A DNA stretch of 64,000 nt from a virus. Positions 35,029 to 56,291 of this stretch are shown here, in pieces. How positions within the stretch are numbered: position 1 is the first letter of the stretch; the number at the start of each line of letters is the position of its first letter. The DNA is taken from positions 117,219-181,218 of the IMG/VR virus record IMGVR_UViG_3300037420_001874. One strand, written 5' to 3'. The position numbers and the translations under genes were made by a program. Below the pieces are notes generated by a model, which made no database searches, was not told the DNA's origin, and saw only the letters and a program-made list of their open reading frames with translations.

Positions 35029-35670
35029 ATGCAAATGCAGGTCGGCGAGAAGATCCGTCAGGTCATCGGCAGGCTTCGGGGCTCGGTTGGGGCCAGGCAC
35101 GAGGAGAACGTCCGCTCGGTCATCCGGGGCGACGTGTTCATCAAGCTCCAAGAAGGAGGGCGGGTGACGGAGGAGCGGGAGTTCCGCAACCTCATCGTCA
35201 AGGACGCCTCTATCCTGGTGGCTCGCCTGATGAAGGACAGCCAGGAGCCGACCAAGGGGCTCTTCGCGCTCGCCGTGGGGACGGGGGATGGGGGTTGGAA
35301 CCCGATGGCGCCTCCTGCGCCGACCAACACCCAGAGGGCGCTCTACAGCGAGCTGACGCGCAAGACCTTCTCCCAGACGAGGTTCGTGGATGCGTCGGGT
35401 ACGCCCACGTCGATCCCGACAAACGTGGTCGACTTCGTGACGACCTTCTCCGAGAGCGAGGCCGTGGGCCCTCTCGTCGAGATGGGTCTCATCGGCGGCA
35501 CGATCTCGACCAACCTCGCCGTCCGAAACCCCGTCACCCCTCCGAACGGGAGTTACGACCCGACGGTGGACCTCACGACGCGCGAGACGATGGTGAACTA
35601 CCTCACCTTCCTCGTCATCAACAAGCCCGCGACCTCCACGATGGAGATCGTGTGGAGGCTCACGTTCTGA
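35029..35670 (+). CDS. Tail-collar/fibre attachment protein (DUF3751-like), second paralogue
   Basis: RNLIV...ALAVGTG...ALYSELTRK...TTFSESEAVGPLVEMGLIGG...INKPATSTMEIVWRLTF; GGAGAGG RBS. Confidence 0.6.
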   Translation: MQMQVGEKIRQVIGRLRGSVGARHEENVRSVIRGDVFIKLQEGGRVTEEREFRNLIVKDASILVARLMKDSQEPTKGLFALAVGTGDGGWNPMAPPAPTNTQRALYSELTRKTFSQTRFVDASGTPTSIPTNVVDFVTTFSESEAVGPLVEMGLIGGTISTNLAVRNPVTPPNGSYDPTVDLTTRETMVNYLTFLVINKPATSTMEIVWRLTF

Positions 35671-41488: not shown

Positions 41489-44400
41489 ATGGCGGACAAC
41501 TTCGGCAGCGGGGTATCCCGAGTTCTCGATCCCAAGAAGGCGGCCTTCCACCAGGTCATCTGGCAGAAGGGCAAGCCTCCGCTCGACAGCGAGCTGAACC
41601 TGATTCAGCAGCTCGAAAACGACTGGAGGCAGCAGCTCGTGCTGCGGGGTACGCCTTCGGGCTGGCTCGGCAACGAGACCAACCCGAGCGAGGACTTCGT
41701 CACCCATCCTTCGGTCTCGAATGGGTTCCGTTACGGCCGTCAGAGGTCGGGTGAGAAGCAGGCGATCCAGTGGGCCGTGGTCAACGGCTGGCTCATCCCT
41801 GTCACGGGAACCCGCACCGGCACCCCGCCTGGGGCCCCGAACGATGCCGACACCTGGAACGCCATCGCGCTCGACCCCCCTCCGTCGAACTCGGGCGACT
41901 TCCGCACCGACTTCGTCTTCTTGGAGGTCTGGCTCGCGCGGGTCCCTCCGGCTCCGGCCACCCTGAACAAGCCCTCGGCGAGCGCCATCTACCGCTATGG
42001 CAACGTGGAAGGTGGCATGAGCTACCTTCCCGATGACGTGCAGGACCCGCAGATCGGTTCGGAGACGACCGAGCGCGTGCAGGTCCAGTACCGCATCCGG
42101 GTGGTCAAGGGCCTGCTCGGCCTCTCGACCTACCCCGACGGTTTTGACCCGAGCGTGGTCAAGGCCCAGGGTGCGGCGGTCTCGGCGACGAGCTTCACCT
42201 TCTCGAACATGCGCCAAGAGCTGGGTGACCCCGGCCTCTGGCGCGCGGGCGATGGGACCCAGAACTCGCTCGGGACCGTGGACGGCTACGTCTACGCCAT
42301 CCCCCTCTGTGGCGTGTTCCGTCGCAACTCGGTGGTCTGGACGGGCGACCCCTCGCCCAACCTGAACGGCGCTTTCAACCGCAACCCCACGGCTACCGAC
42401 CGCAGCGGCTTCACCTACTTCTCGCTCAGCCCGACGATCTCGGGTTCGCTCACCGCCACGGCGACGACGCTGACGCTCAACTCGGCGAGCAACCTTCCTC
42501 TCCCCTCGTCGCCTGCGACGCCGGTTCTCATCCAGATCGGCGACGAGCTGATGACCTACACGGGCATCACGGGCACGACCGTCTCGGGTCTGATCCGAGG
42601 GGCTCGCGGCACAACGGCCGAAGCTCACCCGATGGGCTCGGTCATCAAGGTGATCTCCGGTCGGCCCGATGGTCTGTTCGCGGACCAGGTGGCCCTCACC
42701 GACATCATCGATCTGCGTCACCTGGTCAACCCCAACGGCTTCGACTACGCAGCGCTTCTCAAGGCGAACCTCGACAAGCTGATGCGAGGCCAGCTCCGCG
42801 CCAACTGGAAGAGGACCGGCTCGGGCACGCAGGGCCCGTTCGTCTTCTATCAGGACAAGGTCTCGACGAGCGCAGCCTCCCTCGGTGTGACCCAGATCGA
42901 CCGTCCCGATGGCATTCGTCAGGTCTTCTCCGATGCGGCTGTGCAGCAGAAGGTCGAGCTGATCGTCACCCCGTACACGGCTGCGGTCGTTCCTCCGGCC
43001 ACGCAGCCGGCGGGCGCCTCGTGGTCGCTCACGATCAACGCCAATGTGGCCAAGCAGGCGGCTGGCAACATCTGGACGGCGGGCGGTGACGGCGACGAAA
43101 TCGTCATCCCCATCGCCCAGTTCAAGAACTCTCTGCCTGGTTCGGACGCCGATCAGGTACGGTTCCTCAACGACGGGCTCTCGAACGCGGTCGAGATTCG
43201 TCTCGACGGAGAGGCGGACCCGCTCAACTCGTCGCAGTTCACGGTCACCCCGTCCATTCCTGGGCCGAACGATGACCTGGTCATCAAGCTCCAGGGTGTC
43301 GGGTCTCCGTTCCCGACGAGCGCGACGCCGAACCCGGTGAACCTCTACATCACCGTCCATGTCCAGTACGGTGCGGGCCGTGGTCTCTCTCGTCGACCCG
43401 ACAGCCTCCACTCGCTGACGGTGCTCAACCCGAACTCGAACCTGCTCGTGCAGCCGGGCAGCGCTTCGGGGACGAGCAACCTCTTTCCGCTTCGTACGGG
43501 ATGGGCGCTGCTCTGGAGCAAGTACCGGAACGATGTTTACAAGAACCTCCTTCCGGTCACGAGCGAGACGTACGCCGACCTCGGGTCGAAGACTGTCATC
43601 CTGACGCCCTTCCGGGTCATCCAGTTCCCGCAGGGGTCCGTCGGCGTCCGTACGCTCGACGGGGACGGCCTGAACGGCGGCCAGGGCCTCATGCCCCCGC
43701 TCAAGACCGACGGCATCACGGCCAAGTGGGGCACCACCGACCCGCTCGGTCTCTTCGCAAACTGCGACTCCGGCCTCGACGCAGCGGTCAAGAACATCTA
43801 CGTGACCCTGCCCCGGCATCTCGTTCCGGGCTGGGGAGCGCACCACGTCCCGATCCTGCCGGCCGACAACGCGACGTTCGATGCGGGCATCAACTACATG
43901 TTGATGGCAAAGAAGGGCAGCGCGCTCTCCGACGCCGATCACAACCGACAGTACGTCAACTACTCCTCGAACGCCCCGCTCTCGTACGCCTCGTTCTCGA
44001 CGGGCAACTTCTCGGGTGGCGTGACGACGACGGCGACGTACAACTCGACCTTCAGCTACTCGGGTATCACGCACGCGGGGGCTCGGTTCTTCACCGACAC
44101 CCGCAACCTCGGTCGGAAGGGCATCGAGCTGCCTCCCTTCTACGGGGTCGCTCGTCTGTTCGCGGTCTACGAATCGGCGGACTACAAGACCAACGGCTCG
44201 GCCTTCGACCCGGCGACGCGCGAGCTGACGGGCACGGGGGCGACGAACCTGCTTCGGCAGGGCTTCACGGGTCCGACCTTCTGGGTCGAGCTGGACGACG
44301 ACGGCGACAGCACCTTCATCCTGAACGCCGAGGCGCTCGATCTCTCGAAGAGCCCGACGCCGATCAGCACGTTCTCGTCGAAGCACTACGTCATCGAGGC

Positions 44401-45628
44401 GAGCATCTTCGGCTTCGACCGCGGCAGCTTCGACCTCGAACAGCCCTTCCGGCTTCTGCTCAGTCGGGACCGTACGCAGGCGAACACGACTGGAGGCGCC
44501 CCGGCTCGATCGAACAACGTCAACGTCCCGATCGTCGGGCCGACGGGCATCCTTCCCGGTCCGATGAATGCTTCGGACACGGTCTTCGCCAACTACAGCC
44601 GCACCCCCTACCAGGGCGACGCTTTCGGTAGCCAGACGAACTACCTGGACATCGGCTACTACCCCGGGTCGCTCCAGTCGGCGACGGCCTACCAGATCGC
44701 CTCGTCGCAGCTCGACGAGTCGGCCCTCACGCGACCGAACCAGAAGTCCTTGGAGGTGCTCGCTTCGCAGGGCTTCATCACGACGCTCGGCACCGGACGC
44801 CTCTCCGGGGATATCGCGTACGGGGCGGACTTCGACTTCCGCAACGTGGGCTACGAGGACCCGAACAGCTTCCCGCCGTCGTCGGGCATTGACGATCGCC
44901 CCACCGTCCTTCCGAGCACGCTCGACCTGGAGGACGGAGAGGTCGATGGCACCTACCTCGGATGTACCGAGCGTCTGCCTCTCGGCGCCCTTCACCGAGA
45001 CAAGGACTTCCGAGGGGCGCGGTTCGAGGTCTCCGGTGGGGGCTCTGCACCTCTCGCTTACGTCAACGACGAGGGCCTCGCGAACTTCACCCCGAGCCTC
45101 GCCAAGAGCCAGAAGTACGAGCAGACCGAGATCACGCTCCTGCCGGCCACGGCGTCTTCGGGTCAGCCTGGAGACGTGCTGGTCCACGTCGATGGCGAGA
45201 CCGGCAGTTACGGCACGCTCACCAACTTCCGCACTTTCCGCGGGGGCTCGGCGTTCTCGGCGGCCGGTTCGCATCCGGGCGGAGACGTGTACTCGAACTA
45301 CCGCGAGATTGCCTCGACTTCGGGACACACGAATGTCCTCGTGGGCAAGGCGTACCTCGTGCGAAACACGGTCACGAGCGTCGGATCGAATGAGGTCTCA
45401 GCCGGCGACGAGCTGATGATGCTCATCGTCACGACGGCCTACGCGCTGGGGAGTGTCACTCCCATGGTTTCGATGGTGCGAATGAACACCAACGGCACCG
45501 GCGAAGGTCTCTCGGCTGCGGATCTCTACCGCATCGAAGGCCGCCCGCTCCTCTCCAACCACGTTCGCTACACGGTCGACCCGGCCTCGGTGACCTTGCC
45601 GAGCAAGACCATCCTGGGGTTTTACTGA
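41489..45628 (+). CDS. Large tail fibre/baseplate protein, DUF4815-like N-terminus, paralogue 2
   Basis: VSRVLDPKKAAF..VIWQKGKPPLDSELN; ETTERVQVQYRIRV, GDPGLWRAG, GTVDGYVYAIPLCGVFRRN and RPDGLF.D blocks are shared with 35714..38323. Confidence 0.6.
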   Translation: MADNFGSGVSRVLDPKKAAFHQVIWQKGKPPLDSELNLIQQLENDWRQQLVLRGTPSGWLGNETNPSEDFVTHPSVSNGFRYGRQRSGEKQAIQWAVVNGWLIPVTGTRTGTPPGAPNDADTWNAIALDPPPSNSGDFRTDFVFLEVWLARVPPAPATLNKPSASAIYRYGNVEGGMSYLPDDVQDPQIGSETTERVQVQYRIRVVKGLLGLSTYPDGFDPSVVKAQGAAVSATSFTFSNMRQELGDPGLWRAGDGTQNSLGTVDGYVYAIPLCGVFRRNSVVWTGDPSPNLNGAFNRNPTATDRSGFTYFSLSPTISGSLTATATTLTLNSASNLPLPSSPATPVLIQIGDELMTYTGITGTTVSGLIRGARGTTAEAHPMGSVIKVISGRPDGLFADQVALTDIIDLRHLVNPNGFDYAALLKANLDKLMRGQLRANWKRTGSGTQGPFVFYQDKVSTSAASLGVTQIDRPDGIRQVFSDAAVQQKVELIVTPYTAAVVPPATQPAGASWSLTINANVAKQAAGNIWTAGGDGDEIVIPIAQFKNSLPGSDADQVRFLNDGLSNAVEIRLDGEADPLNSSQFTVTPSIPGPNDDLVIKLQGVGSPFPTSATPNPVNLYITVHVQYGAGRGLSRRPDSLHSLTVLNPNSNLLVQPGSASGTSNLFPLRTGWALLWSKYRNDVYKNLLPVTSETYADLGSKTVILTPFRVIQFPQGSVGVRTLDGDGLNGGQGLMPPLKTDGITAKWGTTDPLGLFANCDSGLDAAVKNIYVTLPRHLVPGWGAHHVPILPADNATFDAGINYMLMAKKGSALSDADHNRQYVNYSSNAPLSYASFSTGNFSGGVTTTATYNSTFSYSGITHAGARFFTDTRNLGRKGIELPPFYGVARLFAVYESADYKTNGSAFDPATRELTGTGATNLLRQGFTGPTFWVELDDDGDSTFILNAEALDLSKSPTPISTFSSKHYVIEASIFGFDRGSFDLEQPFRLLLSRDRTQANTTGGAPARSNNVNVPIVGPTGILPGPMNASDTVFANYSRTPYQGDAFGSQTNYLDIGYYPGSLQSATAYQIASSQLDESALTRPNQKSLEVLASQGFITTLGTGRLSGDIAYGADFDFRNVGYEDPNSFPPSSGIDDRPTVLPSTLDLEDGEVDGTYLGCTERLPLGALHRDKDFRGARFEVSGGGSAPLAYVNDEGLANFTPSLAKSQKYEQTEITLLPATASSGQPGDVLVHVDGETGSYGTLTNFRTFRGGSAFSAAGSHPGGDVYSNYREIASTSGHTNVLVGKAYLVRNTVTSVGSNEVSAGDELMMLIVTTAYALGSVTPMVSMVRMNTNGTGEGLSAADLYRIEGRPLLSNHVRYTVDPASVTLPSKTILGFY

Positions 45629-45984
45629 TGGCTCGTGGATCTTTCTCAATCGAAACGGTCCCCCTTCGCTACCGGTCGAAGGGGGCCATGCGGGCCCGGG
45701 CTGTCATCCGGGACATGCTCGCCAACCCGTTTCTCTCCGAGACCCAGAGGATGCACTTCGAGGCGCGGCTTCTCGACATCGCCATTTGGGAGCAGGGGGG
45801 GCTGGGTGTCCGAGGGGGCGGAGGCGGCGAGGGTGGCGGAGGCGGTGGTGTGGGCGGGGGAGGGGGTGGCGTGACGCTTGCTCGGGGCGGCGCCCCCTCC
45901 CCCTCTTCACCTGCGGCCCCTTCGGGTACTGGAGAGCATCACGAAGTGGGTGTGGGCGAGACCCTTCAGGTGCAAGAGTCCTGA
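45628..45984 (+). CDS. Small protein with poly-Gly linker (possible fibre assembly/accessory protein)
   Basis: TGATG-coupled to the fibre gene; GGGGGEGGGGGGVGGGGGG linker; ends GETLQVQES. Confidence 0.55.
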   Translation: MARGSFSIETVPLRYRSKGAMRARAVIRDMLANPFLSETQRMHFEARLLDIAIWEQGGLGVRGGGGGEGGGGGGVGGGGGGVTLARGGAPSPSSPAAPSGTGEHHEVGVGETLQVQES

Positions 45985-46000
45985 TCTAGGTCGTCCGGGT

Positions 46001-46028
46001 TTTCGTTTTATTGGGCCTCCGCTTGTGA
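46001..46028 (+). promoter_or_regulatory. Putative phage promoter (TAT-N13-GTGA)
   Basis: TTTCGTTTTAT-TGGGCCTCCGCTT-GTGA before the holin-like gene. Confidence 0.45.
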
Positions 46029-46038
46029 GGTCCTACCG

Positions 46039-47772
46039 ATGAACCTGGACGACATTTTCAACGCTTTCGTCAACCCCCAGACGATCCTCATCTGCCTGGT
46101 CGTGTACGTGATGACGTTCGCGATCCGAACGGCCGTCGAGGCTCTCTGGAAGAGCGCTTCCCACAACCTGCTCTGGAACGAGCTGTTTCTGCCGCTCGGT
46201 CCGATCGCCAACGGCGCCCTTCTCGGCCTCGCGGCCAAGACCTTCGTGTGGCCCGAGGTGGCGGGTGGCTCGCTCGCCGGCCGGATGATGTACGGCGCGG
46301 TCTGCGGCCTCTTCTCCGCGTTCGTCTACGGCCGTGCTCGTTCGTTCGCCGAGGCCAAGGCTTCGAGCGTGCTCGGGCAGAAGTTACCGTCCCCTCTCGC
46401 AAAGACCGTTCGAGGAGCTTTCACCATGGTTGCCGATCCGAAGCGCGTCGCCTCCAAGTTCACCCAGGCCGAGCGTCTGGCGTCTGATTTCTTCGAGCTG
46501 AGGTACGCGCGGCTCCTCGTCGCGATGACGTTGCAGGAGGCCAAGAAGATCCTTGGCCTCGACCCCCTGAAGACGCCTACCGAGGACGAGATCAGAAAGG
46601 CGTACCGGGCGCTGGCTTTTGCCAACCATCCCGATCGCGGCGGTACCCACGAGAAGATCGTGGAGATCAACACTGCGAAGGACGTGCTCGAAGGCAAGCA
46701 GAAGCCTACGTGGACGCCGTCGCCGTCGCCTCGCCCCTCGAATCCCTGGCCCTACCCGGGTGAACGCGGAGCGCCGCCTCCGCCGAGGGACCCGCCCAAG
46801 CCGTATACGAAGGTGCCGGGTGTCACGTTCGCCGAGGCGAAGAGCGCTGGCAACGTCCCGACCTCGGCCGAGTGGAAGGTCTGCTCGACCGAGACCTGGC
46901 CGAAGGGTGACGCGGGCGAGCGCCGGATCATCTTCTGGGTGGTCTACGGGCAGACCAACAGCCAGCACGTCTTTCTCCTGGTGACGCGCAAGGGCTCCTA
47001 CTACGACCACGAAAAGCGCCTCGAACACGAGAACGAATACGGCATGGCCGTCGCCACGGCCTCGAAGTCGCAGGACCTCATCAAGATCGCTCCGAAGCTC
47101 ATCAAGAGTCTGATGGGCTCAGAGCTGCTCGCCGGCCGCACCGTGAGGGCCCCGGTCAAGTACAAGCTCTGGCCGGAGAGTCAGTCGCTCACCGAGGAGA
47201 CCATCAGCAAGATCGGCTACTCGGGGGCGATGGCGCTGAAGGACGCGCTCAAGGGGGCGGGGGTCCTGACGGGCGACGAGAAGGGCATGGCCGACCGCAA
47301 GTCTCGGGTCGAGGTCTACTGCCGCTTCAATCAGGACAAGTACAAGGCCATGCAGGCCAAGAAGAAGAGCGGCGAGATCCGCATGGTCGAGTCCTGGCAG
47401 GTCGTCGACATGTTCGTGGTCTTCAACGGCAAGGAATACCAGCTCGCCGACGACACGATCGAGAACCTTCAGAAGAACAACTTCATCCTGGCTGTCTTCG
47501 GCTACAAGATGGAGCAGCGCAAGGTTCTGAACAACAACACGGGCAAGATGTTCGGCCGGGGCTACTCGCCGGGCTACCTCATGGGCCTGCTCGCCGACGC
47601 GCTCACGAGCGAGCCCTCGTCGCTCATCATCCAGCTCACGGCCGAGGCCGAGAAGCTGCAAGATGCCGGGGCCAAGACGGCGTGCATGAGGGCCTTCCGG
47701 GCGAGCACCACGCTCGAAGACACGGCCCTGATGTTCGGCCTCGATCTCTACGACGCCTTCCGCGCCCTCTGA
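46039..47772 (+). CDS. Code-11 ORF joining a holin-like membrane protein (46039..46386, ending at TTA) and a J-domain protein (46426..47772); probably two genes
   Basis: First 115 aa contain ~3 hydrophobic helices. TTA at 46384, GAGGAG at 46412-46417 and in-frame ATG at 46426. J-domain LQEAKKILGL...EIRKAYRALAFANHPDRGG..EKIVEINTAKDVL with an intact HPD motif. Confidence 0.75.
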   Translation: MNLDDIFNAFVNPQTILICLVVYVMTFAIRTAVEALWKSASHNLLWNELFLPLGPIANGALLGLAAKTFVWPEVAGGSLAGRMMYGAVCGLFSAFVYGRARSFAEAKASSVLGQKLPSPLAKTVRGAFTMVADPKRVASKFTQAERLASDFFELRYARLLVAMTLQEAKKILGLDPLKTPTEDEIRKAYRALAFANHPDRGGTHEKIVEINTAKDVLEGKQKPTWTPSPSPRPSNPWPYPGERGAPPPPRDPPKPYTKVPGVTFAEAKSAGNVPTSAEWKVCSTETWPKGDAGERRIIFWVVYGQTNSQHVFLLVTRKGSYYDHEKRLEHENEYGMAVATASKSQDLIKIAPKLIKSLMGSELLAGRTVRAPVKYKLWPESQSLTEETISKIGYSGAMALKDALKGAGVLTGDEKGMADRKSRVEVYCRFNQDKYKAMQAKKKSGEIRMVESWQVVDMFVVFNGKEYQLADDTIENLQKNNFILAVFGYKMEQRKVLNNNTGKMFGRGYSPGYLMGLLADALTSEPSSLIIQLTAEAEKLQDAGAKTACMRAFRASTTLEDTALMFGLDLYDAFRAL

Positions 47773-47778
47773 GGTTCC

Positions 47779-48318
47779 ATGAGCCCTGACAGCACGTCGT
47801 TCTGGGCCCGCACCTGGCAGGGCTTCCGAGCCGCCCTCGCGTGGCTCGGTCAGAAGGTGGTCGGGCCCCTGCTCGCTGTTCTCGTCGTCATCGGAGCGAT
47901 CTTGCTCCTGGCGATGGGGGCCAAGGGCCTTCAGATCGGCGGGTTGCTCGGCAAGCTCCTCGGTCGCAAGGACGAGCCCGAAAAGAAGACCGTCGAGATC
48001 GCCAACACGATCCCCCCGGGCCGCGTCGACAAGGACGGAAAGCTCATCCCGCAGGGCACGCCCGACTCGCAGGGGATGGTGCAAGCCGTCGTCGTGCCGG
48101 TCGACCAGCCGGGCCTCTTCTCGAAGCCGGGGACGGTGACCTTCACGCCTCCGGGCGAGACCAAGCCCGTCGAGGTGGTCTTGCCCGACGGGGTCAAGAA
48201 TCAGGACGTGGCGCAGGTCGTGGTCGTCTCGCCAAGCGTGGTCGTTGTCACGGTCAAGGACAGCTCGGGTGTGCCGGCCGCCCAGGTGGACGACCTCTTG
48301 AAGAAGTACGGGGGCTAG
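47779..48318 (+). CDS. Membrane-anchored protein, possible spanin-like lysis component
   Basis: One N-terminal TM helix (LLAVLVVIGAILLLAMGA) and a Pro/Val-rich soluble part; close to the holin-like gene; TAG stop. Confidence 0.45.
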   Translation: MSPDSTSFWARTWQGFRAALAWLGQKVVGPLLAVLVVIGAILLLAMGAKGLQIGGLLGKLLGRKDEPEKKTVEIANTIPPGRVDKDGKLIPQGTPDSQGMVQAVVVPVDQPGLFSKPGTVTFTPPGETKPVEVVLPDGVKNQDVAQVVVVSPSVVVVTVKDSSGVPAAQVDDLLKKYGG

Positions 48319-48325
48319 AGGCGCG

Positions 48326-49927
48326 ATGATGAGCCTGGCAGACCGTGTAGCGGCCACGTACCTCGCCCGGACGCTCCTGGCGGACGATCTCGACTATGAC
48401 GAGCCGGTAGACCGAGACGATCCCACCGGGGACATCGAGAGCATGAAGCGGGGCGACCGGATGCGTTTCGCCCGGCTCGACACCTTCTGGAAGAAGACCT
48501 CGGGGGCGCTGCTCGCCCAGACGAAGAAGGACCTCGAAGCCCTCGCCCAGAAGACCAACTCGGACGTGTATAAGCAGGAGGTCTCTCGCCTCAGCAAGCT
48601 TATCGTCTCGGTCATCAAGTCGGGCGAGCAGTACGACACCCTGAAGAAGGCCCTCCGCGACAAGCTCTGGACGTATGACCTCGATGCGGTTTTGGAGAAG
48701 CTCCTCGGCTTCGAGACCCAGTACGAAGACCTGACCGAGAAGCTCTGGGCCGGGTCAAACCTGGTCAAGCAGTGGAAGGAGCTGACGCGGCTGGAGAGGT
48801 TCCTCTACCGGTACAACCTGCCAAACGAGCTGCGCGAGGAGTACAAGGAGCTGGAAGACAAGAAGCTTCCGGCGGTCAAGAAGTGCGAAGCTTTGCCCAA
48901 CGGGGCGCATCCTCCCTTCGGGACGCGCGGGGCCTGGCTCGGGGGCGAGGTCAGCAACCTGCTTGGGGCCGTCCTCCGGGAGAAGCACAAGGCCCTGGCA
49001 ACCACGTCTCCCGAGGAGCTGGCCGAAGAGGAGGAGCGGGATCGGGCCGACGCCAAGCGGCTGGCCGAAATGAAAAAGGCCATGTCCTCGGCGCTCTCGT
49101 CCTACTCGAAGAAGCTTCTTCGGGAGATCGAAAAGGCGTTCGTGGTCGAGTGGAACGCGAGCGACATCGATGTCTACGGCGGCTCGACGGGCAAGTGGGG
49201 CCAGGCCAAGATGATCCTGTCGCACCCGCGTCGGGATGAGTTCTTGAGCTTGCAGCTCAAGGTCGAGGACTTCGACGAGAGCAAGCTCTCGAACGCCACG
49301 CTCACGGTGGCCCTCAATGTCCTCGGTGGCCCGCAGAAGTGGACCGAGACCTACAACCACGTCCCGGACCCCAAGGCCATCGTGGGCAAGCTCCCCCGCG
49401 AGGAGCTTCTCGCCATCACGCTGCAAACTTCGGTCTACGATTGGCACGACCACGACTATACGACTCGCATCGTCGGTCTGAACGAGAAGGCTGTGCGGCG
49501 AGAGGCTGTGAAGTACGAGGCGGTCAAGTCGATCAAGCGGATCGAGGACCGGCTCGATGACTGGCAGACCGATCAGGAATGGAACCTCCCCCGCTTCCGC
49601 GACCAGGCCGCCGAGGCATTCCGGGACTGGCTCGCGGGCGATGGGGATAGTGCTTCGTACGACGAGCAGGACAAGAAGGAAGCGGAGCTGTACGCGGAGG
49701 CGGACCGGAAGGCCGAAGAAGAGAAGCGGCAGATTGCCAGCCGTCGACCGGCTCAAAAGGCCGTCTTCGAGGCAGAGGCCAAGGAGACCATCGCCGAGCG
49801 CACGCGCTACATCTCGTGGCGGGCCATCAAGGATCTGATCGGTTTCTCGGACGCGGCGAAGAGCAAGCTGGTCGACCAGCTCAACAAGAAGCCCTCCGCC
49901 GTTCTTCAAGTCCCCTACGAGGGCTGA
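48326..49927 (+). CDS. Hypothetical charged helical protein (533 aa), possibly virion-packaged
   Basis: Long codon-biased ORF; N-terminal LADRVAATYLA leader resembles the PKRVASKF leader of the J-domain protein. Confidence 0.55.
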   Translation: MMSLADRVAATYLARTLLADDLDYDEPVDRDDPTGDIESMKRGDRMRFARLDTFWKKTSGALLAQTKKDLEALAQKTNSDVYKQEVSRLSKLIVSVIKSGEQYDTLKKALRDKLWTYDLDAVLEKLLGFETQYEDLTEKLWAGSNLVKQWKELTRLERFLYRYNLPNELREEYKELEDKKLPAVKKCEALPNGAHPPFGTRGAWLGGEVSNLLGAVLREKHKALATTSPEELAEEEERDRADAKRLAEMKKAMSSALSSYSKKLLREIEKAFVVEWNASDIDVYGGSTGKWGQAKMILSHPRRDEFLSLQLKVEDFDESKLSNATLTVALNVLGGPQKWTETYNHVPDPKAIVGKLPREELLAITLQTSVYDWHDHDYTTRIVGLNEKAVRREAVKYEAVKSIKRIEDRLDDWQTDQEWNLPRFRDQAAEAFRDWLAGDGDSASYDEQDKKEAELYAEADRKAEEEKRQIASRRPAQKAVFEAEAKETIAERTRYISWRAIKDLIGFSDAAKSKLVDQLNKKPSAVLQVPYEG

Positions 49928-49956
49928 TTTCTGCCCCTCTGTCGAGGAGAGATCGC

Positions 49957-50613
49957 ATGGTACCGTATTCGATGAAGGCCCCCCGTGAGGGCTTTGGCGT
50001 AGGGGGCCTGCTCGTGCTGGCTCTCCTGCTCGCGCTCGCTATCCTCCTGGTTGCCCGTCCGGTCGAGGCCCAGACCTGTTCGGGGGGTACCTGCGTCCCG
50101 CCCGAGGACATGGCCGTCTTCGTCAAGCTTCTGCGCGACCAGAAGTGCCGGAACGAGACCAAGCCGGAGTTCAAGCTCGACCCGGTAACGATCGTGACCG
50201 ACCAGGAGGGGCGCGTCTTCGTCTCGGGCGGGGGCCCAAAACCGTACGCCCTGACGATGGTGTGGTGTAACTACGAGGTGCGGGCCGAGGGCAAGGTGGA
50301 CATCGTGGTCGCCGTGCCCGAGCGGCCCGAAGAGCCGACCTGGGGCCTTCGGTTTCGACCGAAGTTCTCTTCGGGCCTGCTCGTCTTCGAGGCGTTCCGG
50401 CGCGATCCATGGACCGAGGCGATCGATGTCGGCGCGCTCTGGGACGTGGCCTTCTACAAGCTTCTGAGCCTCAACTTCGCCACGGGCCTTCGCTCGTCGG
50501 GTGTGGGTATCGGCGTCGACATCACCAAGAATTTCGGTGGGTACCTGGGGTATGCCATGGCGTACTCGGGCTTGCGCCACAACCCCTACGTAGGGCTGTC
50601 GTTCGCCTTCTGA
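49957..50613 (+). CDS. Exported protein with a putative C-terminal outer-membrane beta-barrel
   Basis: GAGGAGA RBS; signal peptide (LLVLALLLALAILLVARPVEA-QTC); alternating beta-strands ending YVGLSFAF with a terminal Phe. Confidence 0.55.
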   Translation: MVPYSMKAPREGFGVGGLLVLALLLALAILLVARPVEAQTCSGGTCVPPEDMAVFVKLLRDQKCRNETKPEFKLDPVTIVTDQEGRVFVSGGGPKPYALTMVWCNYEVRAEGKVDIVVAVPERPEEPTWGLRFRPKFSSGLLVFEAFRRDPWTEAIDVGALWDVAFYKLLSLNFATGLRSSGVGIGVDITKNFGGYLGYAMAYSGLRHNPYVGLSFAF

Positions 50614-50659
50614 GCCCCCGGTCCGAGAGGCTCGGCCGCGGTGTATGGAAGGGGAGCCC

Positions 50660-52396
50660 ATGTCGATCGAAGCGCCTGTCGCCAAGCCCAACCCCAACCC
50701 CCTCTACGAGAAGCTCAAGGCAGTCCGAGCGAGCACGAAGGTCGAGCTGCATCCGACGCCGATGCTCAAGCAGGAGATCACGGGGTTCGACGGTACCCCG
50801 CAGCCGTTCAAGCTCCGCTACTACCAGGCGCAGGGCATCTTTCACCTGCTCGCCGTGCCTCGCATGGTCCTCGGCGACGGTACCGGCCTCGGAAAGACGG
50901 TGCAGGTCTTGGGCTTCCTCGCCTACTCGTGGGCCAAGGACACCGAGCCCAAGGCGATTGTCGTCTGCCCGAAGAGCGCGATCCGACAGTGGGAGGGCGA
51001 GATCAAGCGTTTCATGAACAACGTTCAGGTCTTCGTCGCCTCGGGCACGCTGGCCGAACGAAAGGCCGCCTACGCAGGCTGGGAAGCGGCCTCGTCGGAC
51101 CCAACGAAGCCCCGAGCGATCCTCATCACCAACTACCACTCAGTCGTCCGGGACTGGGACTACGGGACCACGAAGGACCTCGGCCCCGACGGCAAGGTCA
51201 AGATCGTGCCGGGCCTTCTCGACGCGATGACCGCTCGAACGAAAAAGCTCATCGTTGTCTACGACGAATGCACGGCGTTCAAGAACCCGAGCACGAAGAC
51301 TTCGCAGACGTGCGGGTTTCTGTCGCAACGAAGCGCGAGGTGCATCGGTCTGACGGCCACGCTCCTCAAGAACAACCTGATGGAGGGCTTCGGGATCTAC
51401 AAGGTCATCCGGCCCGACGTGTTCACCTCCAAGTACAAGTTCATGGAGATGTTCTGCGTCACCGAGATGCAGAGGGTCAAGAGCGGGGGCAAGGTGCCCA
51501 TCGTCGTCGGCTACAAGAACCTCGCGACGTTCCGCTCGATGATCGACCCCTACTTCTACGGTCGGTCGAAGCACGAGGTCTCGAACGAGCTGCCGGCTCT
51601 CACGACCCGCGAGGTCATCTGCGAGCTGTCGCCGGCCGAGGATCGCAAGTACGCCGAGGCCCTCTCGGGCGTCATCGAGCTGGGCGACGGCGAGCTGAAG
51701 GACTACCAGGAGACGAAGGTTCTGACGAGCCTCATCTACTGCCAGCAGGTCGTCAACTCGCTCTCCCTCATCAAGTACGAGGGTGGCGACATGATCTCAA
51801 CCTCGTTCGACGACGTAGAGGTCAAGGACCTTGGGGCGAAGGAGCAAGCACTCGTCGACCTGCTCACCGACGAGTTCGACGACGAGAAGGTCATCGTCTA
51901 CACGCGCTTCGAGGGGCTCGTCGGCCGGCTCCAGAAGGTGCTCGAAAAGCACGGGATCAAGAGCGCTCGTATCACGGGCAAGGAAGACGCGAAGAAGAGG
52001 TCGGCAGCCCAGGCCGCCTTCCAGAACCTCCAGAGCAAGACGCGCGTGATCTTCATCACCGACGCCGGCTCGGAGGCCATCAACCTCCAGGCCGCGAGCG
52101 GCACGATCTTCTACGACACGCCCTGGTCGTGGGGCACGTACGTCCAGCTCCTCGGGCGCATGATCCGCATCGGCTCGCCTCACCAGAACGTGCTCGCCGT
52201 CCACATCATCGCTCGCCGTCCGGCCAAGGAAAAGAAGAAGCAAGAGACGATCGACGACGTGACGGTGCGGACGCTCCGCAAGAAAAAGAGCCTCATCGAC
52301 CGGGTCATCGGCGAGGCGGCCCAGGGTGCGCTCACGTTCGAGCGCGGCGAGGGCTCGATCCGGGACCTCTACAACGAGATGCGCGAGAGCGCCTGA
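50660..52396 (+). CDS. SNF2/SWI2-family helicase/ATPase
   Basis: GDGTGLGKT (motif I), VVCPKS (Ia), VYDECTAFKN (II), TATLLKNN (III), GSEAINLQAAS (V), QLLGRMIRIG (VI). Start may be 50645. Confidence 0.9.
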   Translation: MSIEAPVAKPNPNPLYEKLKAVRASTKVELHPTPMLKQEITGFDGTPQPFKLRYYQAQGIFHLLAVPRMVLGDGTGLGKTVQVLGFLAYSWAKDTEPKAIVVCPKSAIRQWEGEIKRFMNNVQVFVASGTLAERKAAYAGWEAASSDPTKPRAILITNYHSVVRDWDYGTTKDLGPDGKVKIVPGLLDAMTARTKKLIVVYDECTAFKNPSTKTSQTCGFLSQRSARCIGLTATLLKNNLMEGFGIYKVIRPDVFTSKYKFMEMFCVTEMQRVKSGGKVPIVVGYKNLATFRSMIDPYFYGRSKHEVSNELPALTTREVICELSPAEDRKYAEALSGVIELGDGELKDYQETKVLTSLIYCQQVVNSLSLIKYEGGDMISTSFDDVEVKDLGAKEQALVDLLTDEFDDEKVIVYTRFEGLVGRLQKVLEKHGIKSARITGKEDAKKRSAAQAAFQNLQSKTRVIFITDAGSEAINLQAASGTIFYDTPWSWGTYVQLLGRMIRIGSPHQNVLAVHIIARRPAKEKKKQETIDDVTVRTLRKKKSLIDRVIGEAAQGALTFERGEGSIRDLYNEMRESA

Positions 52397-52402
52397 GCAA
52401 CC

Positions 52403-53326
52403 ATGGCCGACGAAAAACCCGTCTGCATGTTCAACACCTGCGACGGCTCGGGTTTTATCGAGGTGAACGAAGACACCTCGGCCCGCTGCCGGTGCTCTCT
52501 TGTCCGGGCGCTCATCCGGCACCTCGGGCCGGACATCGCTGCGGCTCCCGATATCAACGAGAGCCCGCTCTACAAGGTCAACCCCCAGGCAGCGAGAGCT
52601 GGGGAGAGCCCGCTGGTCGACAAGACCCAATCGAACCTCTTTCTGAAGGGGTGGTGGACGGACCTTCTGCCGCACCTGAAGTTCGTGCTCATCGCCAAGG
52701 GCATCGACTTCCCCTACCGCATCGTGACCGATGAGCGGCTGAAGACGATCTATGTCGGCGCCGAAGCCTACCTCTCCCGGTCCCGTAAGCGCCGCGAGGA
52801 CGGGGACTCGTACAACTCTCTCTCCGACCTCATCGGTCCGGAGTTCAAGCTCATCGTCGTTCGGATGGGCTTTCTTGGTCACCGCAACGTCGCGATGCCG
52901 GGCATCCTGAAGGAGGCTCTCATGCTCCGGCAGGCCGCCGGCCGGGCAACGTGGCTCGTCGAAGAGCCCGACCGGCTCTTTGGGCCGTATCACCGGGCCT
53001 ATGACGAGGACGTGGCGAGCTACATCGATCGGCATTTCGAGGTCATCGATCTGACGAGCGAAGAGAAGCCCGAGGCTGAGCAGAAGAACCACGACGCGCC
53101 CATCCCCGACGAGGAGGACTTCACAATGGGTGCCGAAGAGCCCGAGAAGAAGCCTGCCCCGAAGCCCAAGCCGAAGCCGGCTGTTCAGTCGGTCTTCACC
53201 GAGGAGCGCCCTGCAAAGGTCGCCCTCGCTGCCGACCCTCTGCTCGAACGGACCTGGTCGGGGAGCAAGAAGGGCAACTTCAAGAAGCGTAGCGGGGGCG
53301 GCGGCCCCGCAGGAGACAACCTGTGA
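52403..53326 (+). CDS. DnaC/IstB-like helicase-loader homologue with degenerate ATPase motifs
   Basis: N-terminal C....CDGSGFI......ARCRC Zn ribbon and position directly before the DnaB-like gene; NLFLKGWW where a Walker A would be expected. Confidence 0.5.
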   Translation: MADEKPVCMFNTCDGSGFIEVNEDTSARCRCSLVRALIRHLGPDIAAAPDINESPLYKVNPQAARAGESPLVDKTQSNLFLKGWWTDLLPHLKFVLIAKGIDFPYRIVTDERLKTIYVGAEAYLSRSRKRREDGDSYNSLSDLIGPEFKLIVVRMGFLGHRNVAMPGILKEALMLRQAAGRATWLVEEPDRLFGPYHRAYDEDVASYIDRHFEVIDLTSEEKPEAEQKNHDAPIPDEEDFTMGAEEPEKKPAPKPKPKPAVQSVFTEERPAKVALAADPLLERTWSGSKKGNFKKRSGGGGPAGDNL

Positions 53327-54816
53327 GCGGACTTCTTCGGTCGGTCATCGACTACGACGGCAGCGTCACCCAAGAAAACCTCGCCCAGAACTACCTGAAG
53401 CTCCAGCGGGGGCAGGTCGAGTGGACCCGAGGCGACGACAAGAAAATCTTCCAGTTCGTCCAAGCCTACTTCCAGAACCACCTGGAGCTGCCGCAGTCGC
53501 AGACCCTTCTCGACTACTTCGGCAGGCAGAAGGACGATGAAACGGTCGAGCGCGTCAAGGACATTGGCGCGCTCCCGGCCTACATCCGAACCAACTTCAC
53601 CCACCTGCTCCGAGCTACGGTCGAGGAGCAGAACCGAGCGAAGGTCATCACCCTCTTCAAGGAGGGCCAGGAGATCGCTTCCAAGGGCCTGATGATCGAG
53701 GGGGAGAAGAAGCAGGGTACCCGAGAGGCGATCTCGCACTTCTTCCAGAACGCCAACGCCCTCATCCAGCCCGACAACGGCGCCAAGCTCCGAGGCGACA
53801 TTCGCCAGGACGGCCAGGCGATGTGGAACGAGTACGTGACGGCTGAGGCGAACAAGCACCTCGCCCATGGTCGCTACTCGGGTCTTGCCGCGATCGATAC
53901 CGTCTGCAAGGGCATCAAGAAGGGCGAGCTGTGGGTCCACGCGGCGTTCACCGGTGAGCTGAAGAGCACGTTCGCGATCAACTGGTGCTACAACCTCGTT
54001 ACCAAGTACGGCGAGAACGTCTTCTACGCCTCGCTCGAAGTGCCCTACGAGCAGATCCGGCGTATCGCCTACGTCATCCACAGCACCCACCCGAAGTGGG
54101 CCCGGATGGGCTACTCGCCCCTGCCCTATGGCAAGGTCCGAGACGGCGAGCTGAACGACGAAGAGAAGGCGTTCTACAAGCTCGTCATCGAGGACTTTTG
54201 CAACAACCCCGCCTACGGCAGGTTCGAGGTTTGGCGACCCGAGGACGACGTAACGACCGATGACATCAAGATCGAGGCCGAGCTGTTCCACAAGCAGCAC
54301 GAGATCGGCCTGCTTGTCATCGACCATGGTGGTCTCGTCGAGCCCCGCAAGAAGAAGCGAAACAAGGACTACGTCGTCGAGCTGAACTCGGTCATCCGAG
54401 ACTCGAAGAAGCTCGCTCTCAACTTCAACCGCGCCGACGGCGTCCCGGTCCTTCTGCTCTTTCAGATCAACCGGCAAGGTAAGGACGAGGCCGATAAGGC
54501 CGAGGGTCGCTACAAGATCAAGGCGCTCGCCTACGCGAACGAGGCTGAGCGATCGGCGGACGTGATCTCGACCACCTACCTCAACGACGAGCATCGGCGA
54601 TCAGGGACGACGTTGTTTTGCAACCTCAAAAACCGCGACAACCCGCTGTTCGAGCCCTTCACGGCAAGGGTCAACTTCCAGTCCCGTCGAATCACGAACC
54701 TCGACAACCTGGCGGCGGGGTCGACTCCGGGCATGGCCGTCGAGGATCACAGAAGCCTCATGCACGGGGTGACGACCGCCCTTCAGCAGGGCGGGATTGC
54801 GTTGCCCGGGGTGTAA
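53323..54816 (+). CDS. dnaB: DnaB-like (SF4) replicative helicase
   Basis: YSGLAAIDTVCKGIKKGELWV, AFTGELKST (H1), YASLEVP (H1a), LLVIDH (H2), LLFQINRQG (H3), EAERSADVI (H4). Confidence 0.9.
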   Translation: MSGLLRSVIDYDGSVTQENLAQNYLKLQRGQVEWTRGDDKKIFQFVQAYFQNHLELPQSQTLLDYFGRQKDDETVERVKDIGALPAYIRTNFTHLLRATVEEQNRAKVITLFKEGQEIASKGLMIEGEKKQGTREAISHFFQNANALIQPDNGAKLRGDIRQDGQAMWNEYVTAEANKHLAHGRYSGLAAIDTVCKGIKKGELWVHAAFTGELKSTFAINWCYNLVTKYGENVFYASLEVPYEQIRRIAYVIHSTHPKWARMGYSPLPYGKVRDGELNDEEKAFYKLVIEDFCNNPAYGRFEVWRPEDDVTTDDIKIEAELFHKQHEIGLLVIDHGGLVEPRKKKRNKDYVVELNSVIRDSKKLALNFNRADGVPVLLLFQINRQGKDEADKAEGRYKIKALAYANEAERSADVISTTYLNDEHRRSGTTLFCNLKNRDNPLFEPFTARVNFQSRRITNLDNLAAGSTPGMAVEDHRSLMHGVTTALQQGGIALPGV

Positions 54817-54941
54817 GGAAGCCAGGCCCCCTCCGCGAGGTCAATGGTCGGCTGGTCGAGGACAGGGTCTACCGACTCATCCTTGGCTGGCTGGCCGTGG
54901 AAGAGCGAAAGTGGGAAGTGGCCGAAACGCCGGACGACAAC

Positions 54942-55223
54942 ATGGACCGCTTCGACCGTATCGCACAAAGCCAGACCGGGCACGAGAAGACCGTGGCCCC
55001 GCCGAAGCTCAAGATGGACGAGTGGGTCGGCCGAAAGGTCGCGCTCGTCCGGGATCTCGCCACACGGGGCGGGGCGAAGTTTCCTTGCGGTACGGTCTTC
55101 ACGGTCGAGGGGCACTGGCGAGGCAAGCTCCACCTCTACCGGAACGAACCCAAGCCCGCGGCCATCCGGCAGGTCGAGCGGGCTTGGGTCGAACTTCTCG
55201 ACGAGGGTACCCATGGCTCGTGA
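54942..55223 (+). CDS. Small hypothetical protein (SH3-like beta fold?)
   Basis: 93 aa from ATG 54942 (start uncertain); VGRKVALVRD...KFPCGTVFTVEGHWRGKLHL; fills the gap before the Zn-finger gene. Confidence 0.5.
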   Translation: MDRFDRIAQSQTGHEKTVAPPKLKMDEWVGRKVALVRDLATRGGAKFPCGTVFTVEGHWRGKLHLYRNEPKPAAIRQVERAWVELLDEGTHGS

Positions 55224-55860
55224 CTGGGGCGCAAGCGAAGAGTTCCAGCGGGAGGCAAAAGTCACCGAGCGCCGGGAAGCTTCGGCTCAGTGGGTCCGGG
55301 ATCGCATCCAGAACGTCAAGTCCGCGGTCACGGCCCACGACGTGTGCCGGCACTTCGGGGTGAAGCTTCGCTACGCTGGGTCTTCGCACTCCGAGCAGCT
55401 TAGCTGTCCGTTCCATGGTCCGGACAACCGGCCCTCGGCGAAGATCCACCCCGAGTCGGCTCGTTCAGCCTCGGCCCTCTACTGCTTCGTCTGCCAGAAG
55501 CGCTGGGGCGTCATCGACCTCTGGCGCATGTTCAAGCAGTACGGAGACGATATTCGGTTCACCCAAGTCCTCTTCGAGATCGAGCGGGCCTTCGGCATCA
55601 CGGTACCCGACGGTCCGGCGTGGGAGCGGGAGGAGAAGGGGCCGAGCGAGGCGGAGGTCGATGCCCGGAACCTGCTCGACGTGTGCGAGCGAAGGCTCCG
55701 CGACGCCAAGCCCAAGTTCTCGTGCGAGGGATTCATGAAGGTGTCGTATGCTCTCGACCTCGCCTGGGGTGAGTTCGAGAGCCGAGCCTCCCCGGCGGAA
55801 GACACGAAAGCCAAGGCGCGGGTCATCCTTGACGTGATCGGTCGGAAGATCCGTGCCTAG
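55213..55860 (+). CDS. Stand-alone CHC2 zinc-finger (primase Zn-binding domain) protein
   Basis: LSCPFHGPDNRPSAKI...LYCFVCQKRWGVIDL; GAGGG before ATG 55213; no TOPRIM domain. Confidence 0.85.
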   Translation: MARDWGASEEFQREAKVTERREASAQWVRDRIQNVKSAVTAHDVCRHFGVKLRYAGSSHSEQLSCPFHGPDNRPSAKIHPESARSASALYCFVCQKRWGVIDLWRMFKQYGDDIRFTQVLFEIERAFGITVPDGPAWEREEKGPSEAEVDARNLLDVCERRLRDAKPKFSCEGFMKVSYALDLAWGEFESRASPAEDTKAKARVILDVIGRKIRA

Positions 55861-56281
55861 GCGCCTGACCCTGCCCACGCGGGAGCTGGGCGAGCTGAAG
55901 CTCCAGGTCATCTATCAGAATGACGGGGCGTGGGAGGCGGCGTGGGCGCCCCTCCAGCGTGACCCCCTGGCTTCGCTCTTCACGGTCGTATCGAAAGAGA
56001 CCTGGACGCACGCGCTCAAGGGCTGGACTTTGCCGCTGGTTCAAGCGCTCGGCATTCCTCCCGAAGGGGCTTTGCGCAAACTACCGAAGGGGGGCGGCGC
56101 TTGTTTCAAGAGGGGCAGGTGTCCGCATTACAATCGTGACGAATGCGTGCCTTCACACAAGAAAATGCCGTGGTGTTTTGAGCCCGGAAGTATCGAGTCA
56201 GAAGCGGCTAGAAGGCTGGGTGCGGAAGCTGTCGGTCTATGGCGCGAGGGGGTGTATATCCTCGTAGTCGAAGAGACCTGA
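55853..56281 (+). CDS. Hypothetical protein with a four-Cys cluster
   Basis: CFKRGRCPHYNRDECVPSHKKMPWC; sits between the Zn-finger and polymerase genes. Confidence 0.55.
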   Translation: MPRRLTLPTRELGELKLQVIYQNDGAWEAAWAPLQRDPLASLFTVVSKETWTHALKGWTLPLVQALGIPPEGALRKLPKGGGACFKRGRCPHYNRDECVPSHKKMPWCFEPGSIESEAARRLGAEAVGLWREGVYILVVEET

Positions 56282-56291
56282 CGGAGGATTC

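Follow-up and report, generated by a model that had tools for sequence, protein, structure and literature searches.

The window analysed here is a stretch of 64,000 nucleotides from the genome of a tailed phage from soil (435 kb, 64% GC), and all positions are numbered from its first letter. Under translation table 11 one of its frames stays open for 577 codons, although its parts are better described as the predicted features below.

46039–47772, plus strand: frame open in table 11, from ATG 46039 to TGA 47770–47772, 577 codons
46027–46030, plus strand: GAGG, Shine-Dalgarno-like, 8 nt upstream of the start of the membrane-protein gene (read from the letters)
46039–46386, plus strand: predicted gene for a three-helix membrane protein of 115 aa, with TTA 46384–46386 (codon 116) as its putative terminator
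46387–46425, plus strand: spacer of 39 nt (13 codons), putatively intergenic, open in frame
46412–46417, plus strand: Shine-Dalgarno sequence GAGGAG, 8 nt upstream of the in-frame ATG 46426
46426–47772, plus strand: predicted gene for a J-domain protein of 448 aa, consisting of a J domain, a proline-rich linker and a conserved C-terminal domain
46546–46704, plus strand: J domain (PF00226), with the HPD motif at 46627–46635 (H197-P198-D199 of the fused frame)
46807–47769, plus strand: family-specific C-terminal alpha/beta domain of the J protein (J-protein residues 128–448)

The positions given in the original prediction for the open frame, the TTA, the GAGGAG and the ATG at 46426 were all reproduced, as was the presence of an HPD motif. 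GC3 is 0.89 (0.887) in the membrane-protein gene (46039–46383) and 0.90 in the J-protein gene, compared with 0.50 (7/14) in the 14 codons that comprise the TTA and the spacer (46384–46425). Across the whole phage genome, only 0.34% of the gene-interior windows of 14 codons have a GC3 that low. The composition of the junction is unlike that of a gene interior, and the linker is intergenic-like. The arrangement GAGGAG-N5-10-ATG occurs at 40 sites in the genome, half of which (20/40) are called gene starts. Residues 110–135 of the fused frame have no match in any relative, and a scan of the junction for promoters and terminators returned nothing that exceeded shuffled sequences. The data sets listed as carrying the stretch included no RNA run.

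The downstream part is a J-domain protein, as had been proposed from its HPD motif. Residues 170–222 of the fused frame score 34.1 bits (E = 3.1e-8) with the Pfam DnaJ model (PF00226), whose curated cut-off is 27.8. All members of a six-sequence alignment have H, P and D, and across 47 members of the family these residues are conserved to at least 90%. The AlphaFold (AF2) model of the protein has a pLDDT of 86.8 overall and above 90 across residues 40–90, and its J fold superimposes on the J domain of Tim14 (Z 9.8, rmsd 2.5, 62 residues), with many other J domains matching at Z 6–7. The C-terminal domain (128–448) is modelled with pLDDT above 90 in most blocks of 10 residues. Searches with the full-length model of PDB, AFDB clusters, VIA wide and the Atlas returned J-domain matches only, with no convincing match to the C-terminal domain, and an Atlas feature search gave no usable match for this domain. 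The best whole-protein matches in BFVD, at low TM, were the J proteins of the T4-like Aeromonas phages 65 and 65.2, and a tblastn search of 50,697 GenBank phage records with the J protein retrieved nothing at E ≤ 1e-5.

Homologues of the J protein were found in huge phages. They are 359–453 aa long and begin at residue ~127–134 of the fused frame, which maps to the ATG at 46426. Forty representatives of this family, whose typical size is about 380–450 aa, align at E < 1e-30 across query residues ~15–447. In nearly all of the best 150 of the 729 family representatives the J domain is located at the N-terminus, and among these 150 the membrane part is present only in the open frame described here. 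The closest characterised counterpart in design is Rki of the T4-like phage RB43, the first phage J-domain protein to be characterised, which likewise joins an N-terminal HPD J domain to a phage-specific C-terminal part and is encoded by a phage that lacks an Hsp70 (PMC3486835). The present protein differs from Rki and from its counterparts in Aeromonas phages 65 and 65.2 in having no tblastn match among GenBank phages and a C-terminal domain of ~320 residues without a recognised fold match. No Hsp70 gene was found in the phage, which implies a partner of host origin for the J protein. Through its HPD J domain the protein would most likely recruit the host DnaK/Hsp70 to whatever client or site the conserved C-terminal domain binds.

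The upstream part shows one strong hydrophobic helix and two weaker ones in hydropathy plots, and its AF2 model, built with 18 homologues, contains helices at residues 13–36, 44–65 and 79–112, the pLDDT dropping past residue 110. Its homologues are 17 stand-alone proteins of 106–179 aa, whose conserved core ends at residue ~107–109 and is followed by variable Pro/Ala-rich, acidic tails of 10–70 aa. Homology sets the end of the core and leaves the exact end at residue 115 unfixed. The gene is terminated by TGA or TAA in each of 13 huge-phage loci.

In order to find out whether the two parts are normally encoded together, as one of the checks suggested with the original prediction, their arrangement was compared in related phages. 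In all relatives fetched, the membrane and J parts belong to separate gene families and often lie far apart. Four relatives have the membrane-protein gene followed by the J-protein gene, with spacers of 6–23 nt and frame offsets of 2, 1, 0 and 2; between these adjoining genes there is always TGA or TAA. No fused homologue was retrieved with the 577-aa query or found among the best 150 J-family representatives. The expectation that this locus normally gives two proteins is borne out by the separation of the parts in relatives and by the use of TTA at gene ends throughout the genome, described below. A transmembrane segment and a J domain on one chain, as in membrane-anchored J proteins of the DjlA/Tim14 type, appear here only under table 11 read-through.

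TTA is found at the ends of about 70 genes of the phage, beside TGA, TAG and TAA, all three of which are still used. When in-frame TTA codons preceded by 30 strongly coding codons were examined, the coding score collapsed after 26 of 29 (0.90), as it did after TGA (0.89), TAA (0.88) and TAG (0.84), compared with 0.15–0.25 for ordinary codons. The three TTAs without collapse comprise one in-frame restart and two at which a convergent gene has its TAA stop. With TTA treated as a fourth stop, the optimal gene model scored 3999 bits higher, the number of genes rose from 575 to 616 and the coverage from 0.855 to 0.891; the control codons were mostly negative, the best being AGA (+1124) and CCA (+1013). 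Both the gene caller and the coding scores are simple models of our own. When TTA counts as a stop, this caller returns the membrane part as a gene of 115 aa. Many of the TTA ends have the form TTATG, or TTA followed by a ribosome-binding site and ATG in any frame, and the next standard stop may lie up to hundreds of codons downstream.

Comparison with orthologues pointed in the same direction. Homologues in the related genome G001 (407 kb, 57.8% GC) were aligned with 40 genes that end in TTA; the alignment stops a median of 5.5 residues before the TTA, and the G001 frame ends a median of 2 residues past the alignment, the same as for genes ending in TGA, TAG or TAA; in 10 of the 40 comparisons both the offset and the tail are 0. 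One gene, encoding an AAA protein, ends in TTA in the phage versus a standard stop in 15 of 15 relatives. Pfam searches at eight other in-frame TTA junctions were mostly uninformative, one of them joining two complete DUF4419 genes in tandem. The collapse test, the gene model and the orthologue ends agree with each other, and the idea implicit in the original prediction, that UUA ends translation here, is thereby supported.

G001 also served as a negative control. It encodes a tRNA-Leu(TAA), clearly uses TTA as a sense codon inside genes and ends them with standard stops, and using TTA as a fourth stop in this genome gained only 113 bits. Among small loci from other relatives, TTA is a sense codon in L004 and L008 (49% GC) as well, and L001, L002, L005 and L007 are too short to judge. 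The phage itself encodes 44 tRNAs, including those for Leu with anticodons CAA, GAG and CAG; tRNA-Leu(UAA) is absent from this set. Its tRNA-Leu(CAA) was compared with the tRNA-Leu(TAA) of G001 to see whether it might have arisen from the latter by an anticodon mutation; the two are 72% identical, versus 77–78% to other Leu tRNAs. UUG is still a common sense codon in the phage. No RF-1, PCRF or peptidyl-tRNA hydrolase (Pth) domain and, using ARAGORN, no tmRNA were found in the phage.

Taken together, the locus very probably holds two separate genes, with UUA ending the first and the J protein initiated independently at 46426. Composition, homology and genome-wide statistics show where the predicted genes begin and end. 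Ribosomes would halt at UUA 46384–46386, releasing a three-helix inner-membrane protein of 115 aa, and the 448-aa J protein would be made by its own initiation at AUG 46426 via GAGGAG. UUA would not be a leucine codon in this phage; it would be the end mark of about 70 genes. The open frame of 577 codons exists because the two genes chance to share a frame and the spacer of 13 codons between them contains no standard stop.

The same lack of a backup stop means that any leak at UUA would yield the fusion. The terminator could be leaky or conditional, a UUA-reading tRNA-Leu, supplied by the host or varying with growth phase, giving some read-through and thus a membrane-anchored J protein of 577 aa with DjlA/Tim14-like topology beside the separate products; UUA-dependent regulation and bypassing have been documented or proposed in Streptomyces and its phages (PMC10732093), and membrane-anchored J proteins do exist, DjlA and TIM14 being among the fold matches to the J part. 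This is nevertheless improbable. After the TTA ends the next gene is found in the three frames 11, 10 and 11 times out of 32, so that in-frame followers (11/32) are as frequent as expected by chance. The relatives with the same gene order differ in their frame offsets, each with a standard stop, and fused homologues were not retrieved. The RNA structure at the junction is not unusual (z = +0.9), offering no stimulatory element. General decoding of UUA would lengthen about 70 more proteins, in the extreme by hundreds of residues, and the Leu tRNAs of the phage (CAA, GAG and CAG) should not decode this codon. If UUA were conditional, for example on growth phase in a bldA-like manner, a DnaK-recruiting J protein tethered to the membrane via the three-helix protein would couple the physiological state of the host to a late phage function, a prospect that we likewise consider improbable. 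The conditional fusion acting as a switch for lysis timing, put forward in the original prediction, is not supported, given the chance distribution of follower frames, the varying offsets in relatives and the lack of both a fused homologue and a junction RNA structure.

A single true protein of 577 aa, in which TTA encodes leucine and the membrane part serves as an N-terminal anchor that the J protein has newly acquired in this phage, is highly unlikely. Table 11 does yield one open frame, and N-terminal additions are seen on other members of the J family (e.g., P0097, P0118, P0172 and P0027). However, the linker is intergenic-like, a strong Shine-Dalgarno sequence and an ATG lie precisely where the homologues start, TTA is a gene end at about 70 other sites with concurring orthologue ends, and the fused form is confined to the present genome. 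The possibility that a true TAA or TGA was mis-called as TTA, which is one substitution away from either in this metagenome-derived genome, is hardly credible, given that the 70 sites share no flanking motif, that TAA, TGA and TAG are called normally elsewhere in the genome, and that independent Logan contigs from two soil-metagenome runs and samples (31x and about 10x) show no difference from the genome over 42450–62449. The agreement takes in the TTA end at 46384 in both runs and those at 60638 and 62402 in the first, although these runs might themselves be the source samples.

Termination at UUA, ending the first of two separate genes, has its nearest precedents outside phages, and the literature reports of UUA as a stop codon that we found concern organelles only, namely the mitochondria of Thraustochytrium/labyrinthuleans (NCBI table 23), peDinoflagellate plastids and Marsupiomonadales mitochondria (PMC12574857). 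As in these organelles, the leucine codon occurs in the phage only where homologues end and is absent from gene interiors. The organelles, however, have small genomes and a known alteration of RF2 or RF1a (PMC12574857), whereas the phage genome is 435 kb in size, has 64% GC and carries no release factor of its own; in addition, UUG remains in common use as a sense codon in the phage, and TGA, TAG and TAA are all kept as stops. UUA would cause peptide release, probably via a host release factor of widened specificity, by analogy with organelles using that code. This proposed mechanism follows the organelle precedents, since no release-factor domain, Pth or tmRNA was found in the phage.

Stop codons are recoded in crAss-like and Lak phages, with TAG read as Gln (code 15) and TGA as Trp (code 4) (PMC9523058, 10.1101/2021.08.26.457843). 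These phages share with the present one genes that are mis-called under table 11 and many tRNA genes of their own. The direction of the change is opposite, however: in those phages a former stop is read as sense and table 11 splits genes, whereas here a sense codon would act as a stop and table 11 would therefore fuse or over-extend them. In Streptomyces UUA is the basis of bldA-dependent regulation, and UUA-triggered bypassing has been proposed for the terminase of phage phiHau3 (PMC10732093). The likeness to our locus lies in a very rare UUA in a high-GC system, positioned between coding blocks and followed by a short non-coding stretch. In phiHau3, however, the flanking blocks are pieces of one conserved protein that have to be joined (PMC10732093), whereas those of the present phage belong to two independent, stand-alone families. 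In this respect the locus departs from UUA-triggered bypassing or control of the bldA type, its two parts being separate in relatives rather than pieces of one interrupted protein.

If UUA truly terminates translation in this phage, it would represent a sense-to-stop codon change beyond organelles, and dozens of proteins would be fused or over-extended by the standard annotation of such phages, the public 577-aa entry being one instance. It would also raise the question of whether a host or a phage release factor reads UUA, and may form a new layer of phage–host incompatibility. The locus is a useful test case, since the genes are in frame without a backup stop and termination (115 + 448 aa) is separable from read-through (577 aa). 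It also defines two families, both common in huge phages, one of small three-helix membrane proteins and the other of J proteins with an uncharacterised domain of 320 residues.

The membrane protein had further been called holin-like on account of its topology and position. Its small size and helices agree with this call; a holin family match and an adjoining endolysin or lysis cassette do not accompany them. The protein matched no Pfam or PHROG family and had no tblastn match in GenBank phages. In the structure search of BFVD the matches were weak only (best E = 0.27), several of those named 'Holin' having a TM of 0.4–0.5; three-helix bundles are a common arrangement. An Atlas feature search returned only unnamed viral clusters, with Phage_holin_5 present on just 12–19% of the members in the clusters at ranks 69 and 91 (scores 0.86–0.87). 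No Pfam lysin domain was detected in the neighbouring genes scanned (35.7–59.3 kb), and SLT, Phage_lysozyme and Amidase_2, the three families searched for genome-wide, were found nowhere in the phage. The protein resembles class I type holins, with their three transmembrane helices, in being a phage protein of ~100 aa with three helices, and differs from them in having neither a holin match in Pfam or PHROG nor an adjacent lysin, as well as in having long-tailed relatives. The holin label is based on size and predicted helices and is putative. The genes scanned at 35.7–59.3 kb are tail-fibre-like or unknown, or encode SNF2, DnaB, primase and PolA, and the membrane-protein gene has the tail-fibre module on one side and the replication module on the other.

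Under table 11, positions 46039–47772 form one uninterrupted frame of 577 codons, in which the original prediction had recognised a holin-like gene and a J-domain gene joined through a TTA. The source record is a single virus genome of 435,218 bp with direct terminal repeats and 64% GC, and the window represents its minus strand. All coordinates of the original prediction were confirmed on re-reading of the sequence.

Features of the locus (window coordinates, strand of the window)
46039: ATG of the membrane-protein gene, with GAGG 8 nt upstream
46384–46386: TTA, codon 116 of the fused frame
46412–46417: GAGGAG, Shine-Dalgarno, 8 nt upstream of the in-frame ATG at 46426
46426 to 47770–47772: J-protein gene, ATG to TGA, 448 codons

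GC3 is 0.89 in 46039–46383, falls to 0.50 across the 14 codons that begin with the TTA and precede the ATG, and is 0.90 in the remainder of the frame; values as low as that of the junction occur in 0.34% of the 14-codon windows within genes of this genome.

The two parts of the frame belong to separate families. A search with the 577-aa frame matched exclusively J-domain proteins of 338–455 aa, and in five full-length homologues (359–453 aa) the alignment begins at about residue 118–140 of the frame, the first ∼117 residues or more being absent. A search with the 448-aa J protein, exhaustive and without profiles, retrieved 729 representatives, 40 of them at E < 1e-30. Of the best 150, nearly all are 380–450 aa long with the J domain at the start, and the few N-terminal additions among them are other domains, never the membrane part. 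One protein of the family, P0027 from another phage (744 aa), contains a copy of the C-terminal domain without the J domain, followed in the same frame by a complete J protein; it could have arisen by tandem duplication or be a further pair of genes wrongly joined. For the first 115 residues, 17 stand-alone homologues were found (106–179 aa, 46–68% identity), with a core conserved to about residue 107 and variable Pro/Ala-rich tails, and the gene stops at TGA or TAA in all 13 huge-phage loci fetched.

The local gene order is also conserved, running from genes for a very large product and one of 220 aa, through those for a fibre-like protein of ∼1,520 aa and a 98-aa protein, to that for the membrane protein. 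At this locus the slot of the 97–99-aa gene of the relatives is occupied by a frame of 118 aa (45628–45984), which contains long runs of glycine, has an only moderate GC3 (0.71) and was not called by our gene model. The J gene directly follows the membrane gene in four relatives, as here, with spacers of 6–23 nt and frame offsets of 2, 1, 0 and 2; in other relatives it lies tens of kilobases off or is present as several paralogues. Residues 1–106/109 of the fused frame align with the membrane proteins of the four same-order relatives and residues 136/152–577 with their J proteins, from residue 9–20 of the latter. Since the alignments split in this way and residues 110–135 have no match in these relatives, the J protein appears to start at the methionine encoded at 46426. 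Whether the two parts are separate genes in related phages, a check proposed with the original prediction, can thus be answered in the affirmative: they form distinct families with, where they are adjacent, a standard stop between them and a varying offset, and their fusion was found in no relative compared. A conserved protein of ∼180 aa with a single transmembrane helix at its N-terminus is encoded after the membrane gene in all relatives, either directly or past the J gene; therefore, it seems to be the membrane-protein pair that is conserved as a unit, with the J gene as a variable insert.

The product of 47779–48318 (179 aa, one N-terminal transmembrane helix) shares its N-terminal motif (SFW/SFG...W) with proteins encoded downstream of the membrane gene in four of the fetched loci (L007, L010, L013 and L014) and, judging from sequence, seems to be the invariant neighbour of the 115-aa protein. 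Further downstream, the 218-aa product of 49957–50613 has an N-terminus resembling a signal peptide and ends in ...SFAF; it has no Pfam matches and is reminiscent of outer-membrane beta-barrel proteins.

In a crude set of ORFs of this phage, only one codon is rarer than TTA, which is concentrated near ORF ends. A codon log-odds score trained on 41 long ORFs was applied to the 30 codons following each codon that was immediately preceded by 30 strongly coding codons free of stops. Coding potential was lost after TTA in 26 of 29 cases (0.90); the rates were 0.89, 0.88 and 0.84 for TGA, TAA and TAG, 0.71–0.42 for other rare codons and 0.15–0.25 for ordinary ones. The sites take the form of TTATG, of TTA and ATG separated by a few bases, of TTA with a Shine-Dalgarno sequence and ATG in any frame, or of TTA with a terminator-like hairpin, and the distance to the next standard stop, located within the following gene, reaches hundreds of codons. 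When TTA was added as a fourth stop to an optimal, non-overlapping gene model, the total score increased by 3999 bits, and the number of genes rose from 575 to 616 and the coverage from 0.855 to 0.891, with 70 genes of the whole phage terminating in TTA. Among 20 control codons the largest gain was 1124 bits, and most lost score. The gene after a TTA end lies in frame 0, 1 or 2 in 11, 10 and 11 of 32 cases, an even spread predicted by a terminator and not by a sense codon.

At two sites of this genome (plus strand, 89879; minus strand, reverse-complement 401117) the TTA end falls on the TAA that stops a convergent gene on the opposite strand; TTA and TAA being reverse complements, the convergent genes share the terminator triplet. 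Elsewhere in the genome (L022, G000:C1:327822–330101), two complete DUF4419 genes stand in tandem and in frame, split by a TTA and a 42-nt spacer, and are read under table 11 as a single 759-aa protein.

Every gene of this phage, read through TTA to the next standard stop, was compared with six-frame ORFs of a relative, G001 (407 kb, 57.8% GC; first 400 kb compared). For the 40 TTA-ended genes with a match, the alignment ends a median of 5.5 residues before the TTA and the G001 frame stops a median of 2 residues past the alignment, both medians being the same as for genes ended by TGA, TAG or TAA. Both distances are zero for ten TTA-ended genes, though read-through would add up to 90 residues, and in other close matches it would add up to 200. 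The AAA gene at 60827–62404 has a standard stop in 15 relatives at the position of the TTA. TTA is also rare in G001, which serves as a negative control, but at four of the ten sites tested there it is clearly a sense codon within a gene, and treating it as a stop gains only 113 bits. G001 encodes tRNA-Leu(TAA); the 44 tRNAs of this phage include leucine anticodons CAA, GAG and CAG, and none for UUA. Relatives at 49% GC have TTA within genes, and the TTA-end trait is specific to this phage among the genomes examined.

In G001 (L028–L047) there are 11 TTAs in 42,561 codons, several of them within ∼10 codons of a standard stop (e.g., minus-strand, reverse-complement 17326, 22705, 66650 and 73977); these rare, end-proximal TTAs could represent an intermediate stage toward reassignment. 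A suppressor-type tRNA with anticodon CTA ('tRNA-Pyl' in ARAGORN) is encoded outside the window at G000 C1 complement 331929–332021, and two such tRNAs are present in G001 (35459–35532 and 35791–35867). TAG terminates ∼89 genes in this phage, in agreement with orthologue ends, and is therefore still a stop for many genes despite the CTA tRNA. ARAGORN also called a four-base anticodon (ctca) in a tRNA of G001 (complement 347126–347200).

The locus offers a clear in-frame example of what is most likely a sense-to-stop use of UUA throughout the phage, which we place among non-standard termination codons. Phages are well known to recode stops as sense codons (PMC9523058 and others); in the literature searched, sense-to-stop UUA was reported only for organelles. 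The first gene would yield the 115-aa protein with three helices and end at UUA, and translation of the second would begin at its own Shine-Dalgarno sequence and AUG. Genes for release factors, peptidyl-tRNA hydrolase and tmRNA were not found in the phage. The switch to UUA stops in organelles is accompanied by RF2 substitution or RF1a changes (PMC12574857); by analogy with these codes, release at UUA would probably be performed by a host release factor of widened specificity or by host machinery altered during infection.

It seems unlikely that UUA is merely an unassigned codon, because stalling would be costly for ∼70 genes, the largest structural ones included. Leaky termination at UUA, which the spacer, having no backup stop, would not arrest, is improbable: the in-frame arrangement occurs at chance rate and is not conserved among relatives, fused homologues are absent from the best 150 J-family representatives and from the search with the 577-aa query, and the junction RNA folds no better than shuffled sequences. 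Nothing tested thus supports selection for a fused product, and the conditional fusion originally envisaged is not upheld. UUA-triggered bypassing has been proposed for Streptomyces, in the phiHau3 terminase (PMC10732093), but there both sides of the UUA belong to one conserved protein, unlike at this locus. Random or assembler error at the TTA is excluded by Logan contigs from two sequencing runs on two soil-metagenome samples, possibly the source of the record, which show zero differences from the window (31x over 45868–62449 in the first run, ∼10x over 42450–56786 in the second) and cover the TTA at 46384, those of the first run also covering the TTAs at 60638 and 62402; a platform-wide bias is unlikely, since the seventy TTA sites have no common flanking motif.

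As to function, the helices of the 115-aa protein (residues 13–36, 44–65 and 79–112; model confidence drops past residue 110) and its size fit a holin, the identity first suggested for it, yet this assignment is doubtful. The protein matches no holin family in Pfam or PHROG, its fold matches are weak, and its relatives have long acidic proline-rich tails. The gene has the tail-fibre module on one side and replication genes (SNF2, DnaB, primase, PolA) on the other; no lysin was found nearby, nor were SLT, lysozyme or Amidase_2 domains found anywhere in the phage.

The J-domain call is borne out by a Pfam DnaJ match above the curated cut-off (fused residues 170–222; HPD at 46627–46635). The AlphaFold model of the J protein (pLDDT 86.8) consists of the J domain, which matches Tim14 with a Z of 9.8, followed by a proline-rich, disordered linker and an alpha/beta domain of 320 residues, modelled with confidence, for which PDB, AFDB clusters and the Atlas gave no convincing match. 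Since no Hsp70 gene was found in this phage, the J protein presumably recruits host DnaK. Such recruitment has been demonstrated experimentally for the RB43 phage protein Rki (PMC3486835). As a whole, the J protein of this phage is matched best in BFVD by J proteins of the T4-like Aeromonas phages 65 and 65.2.
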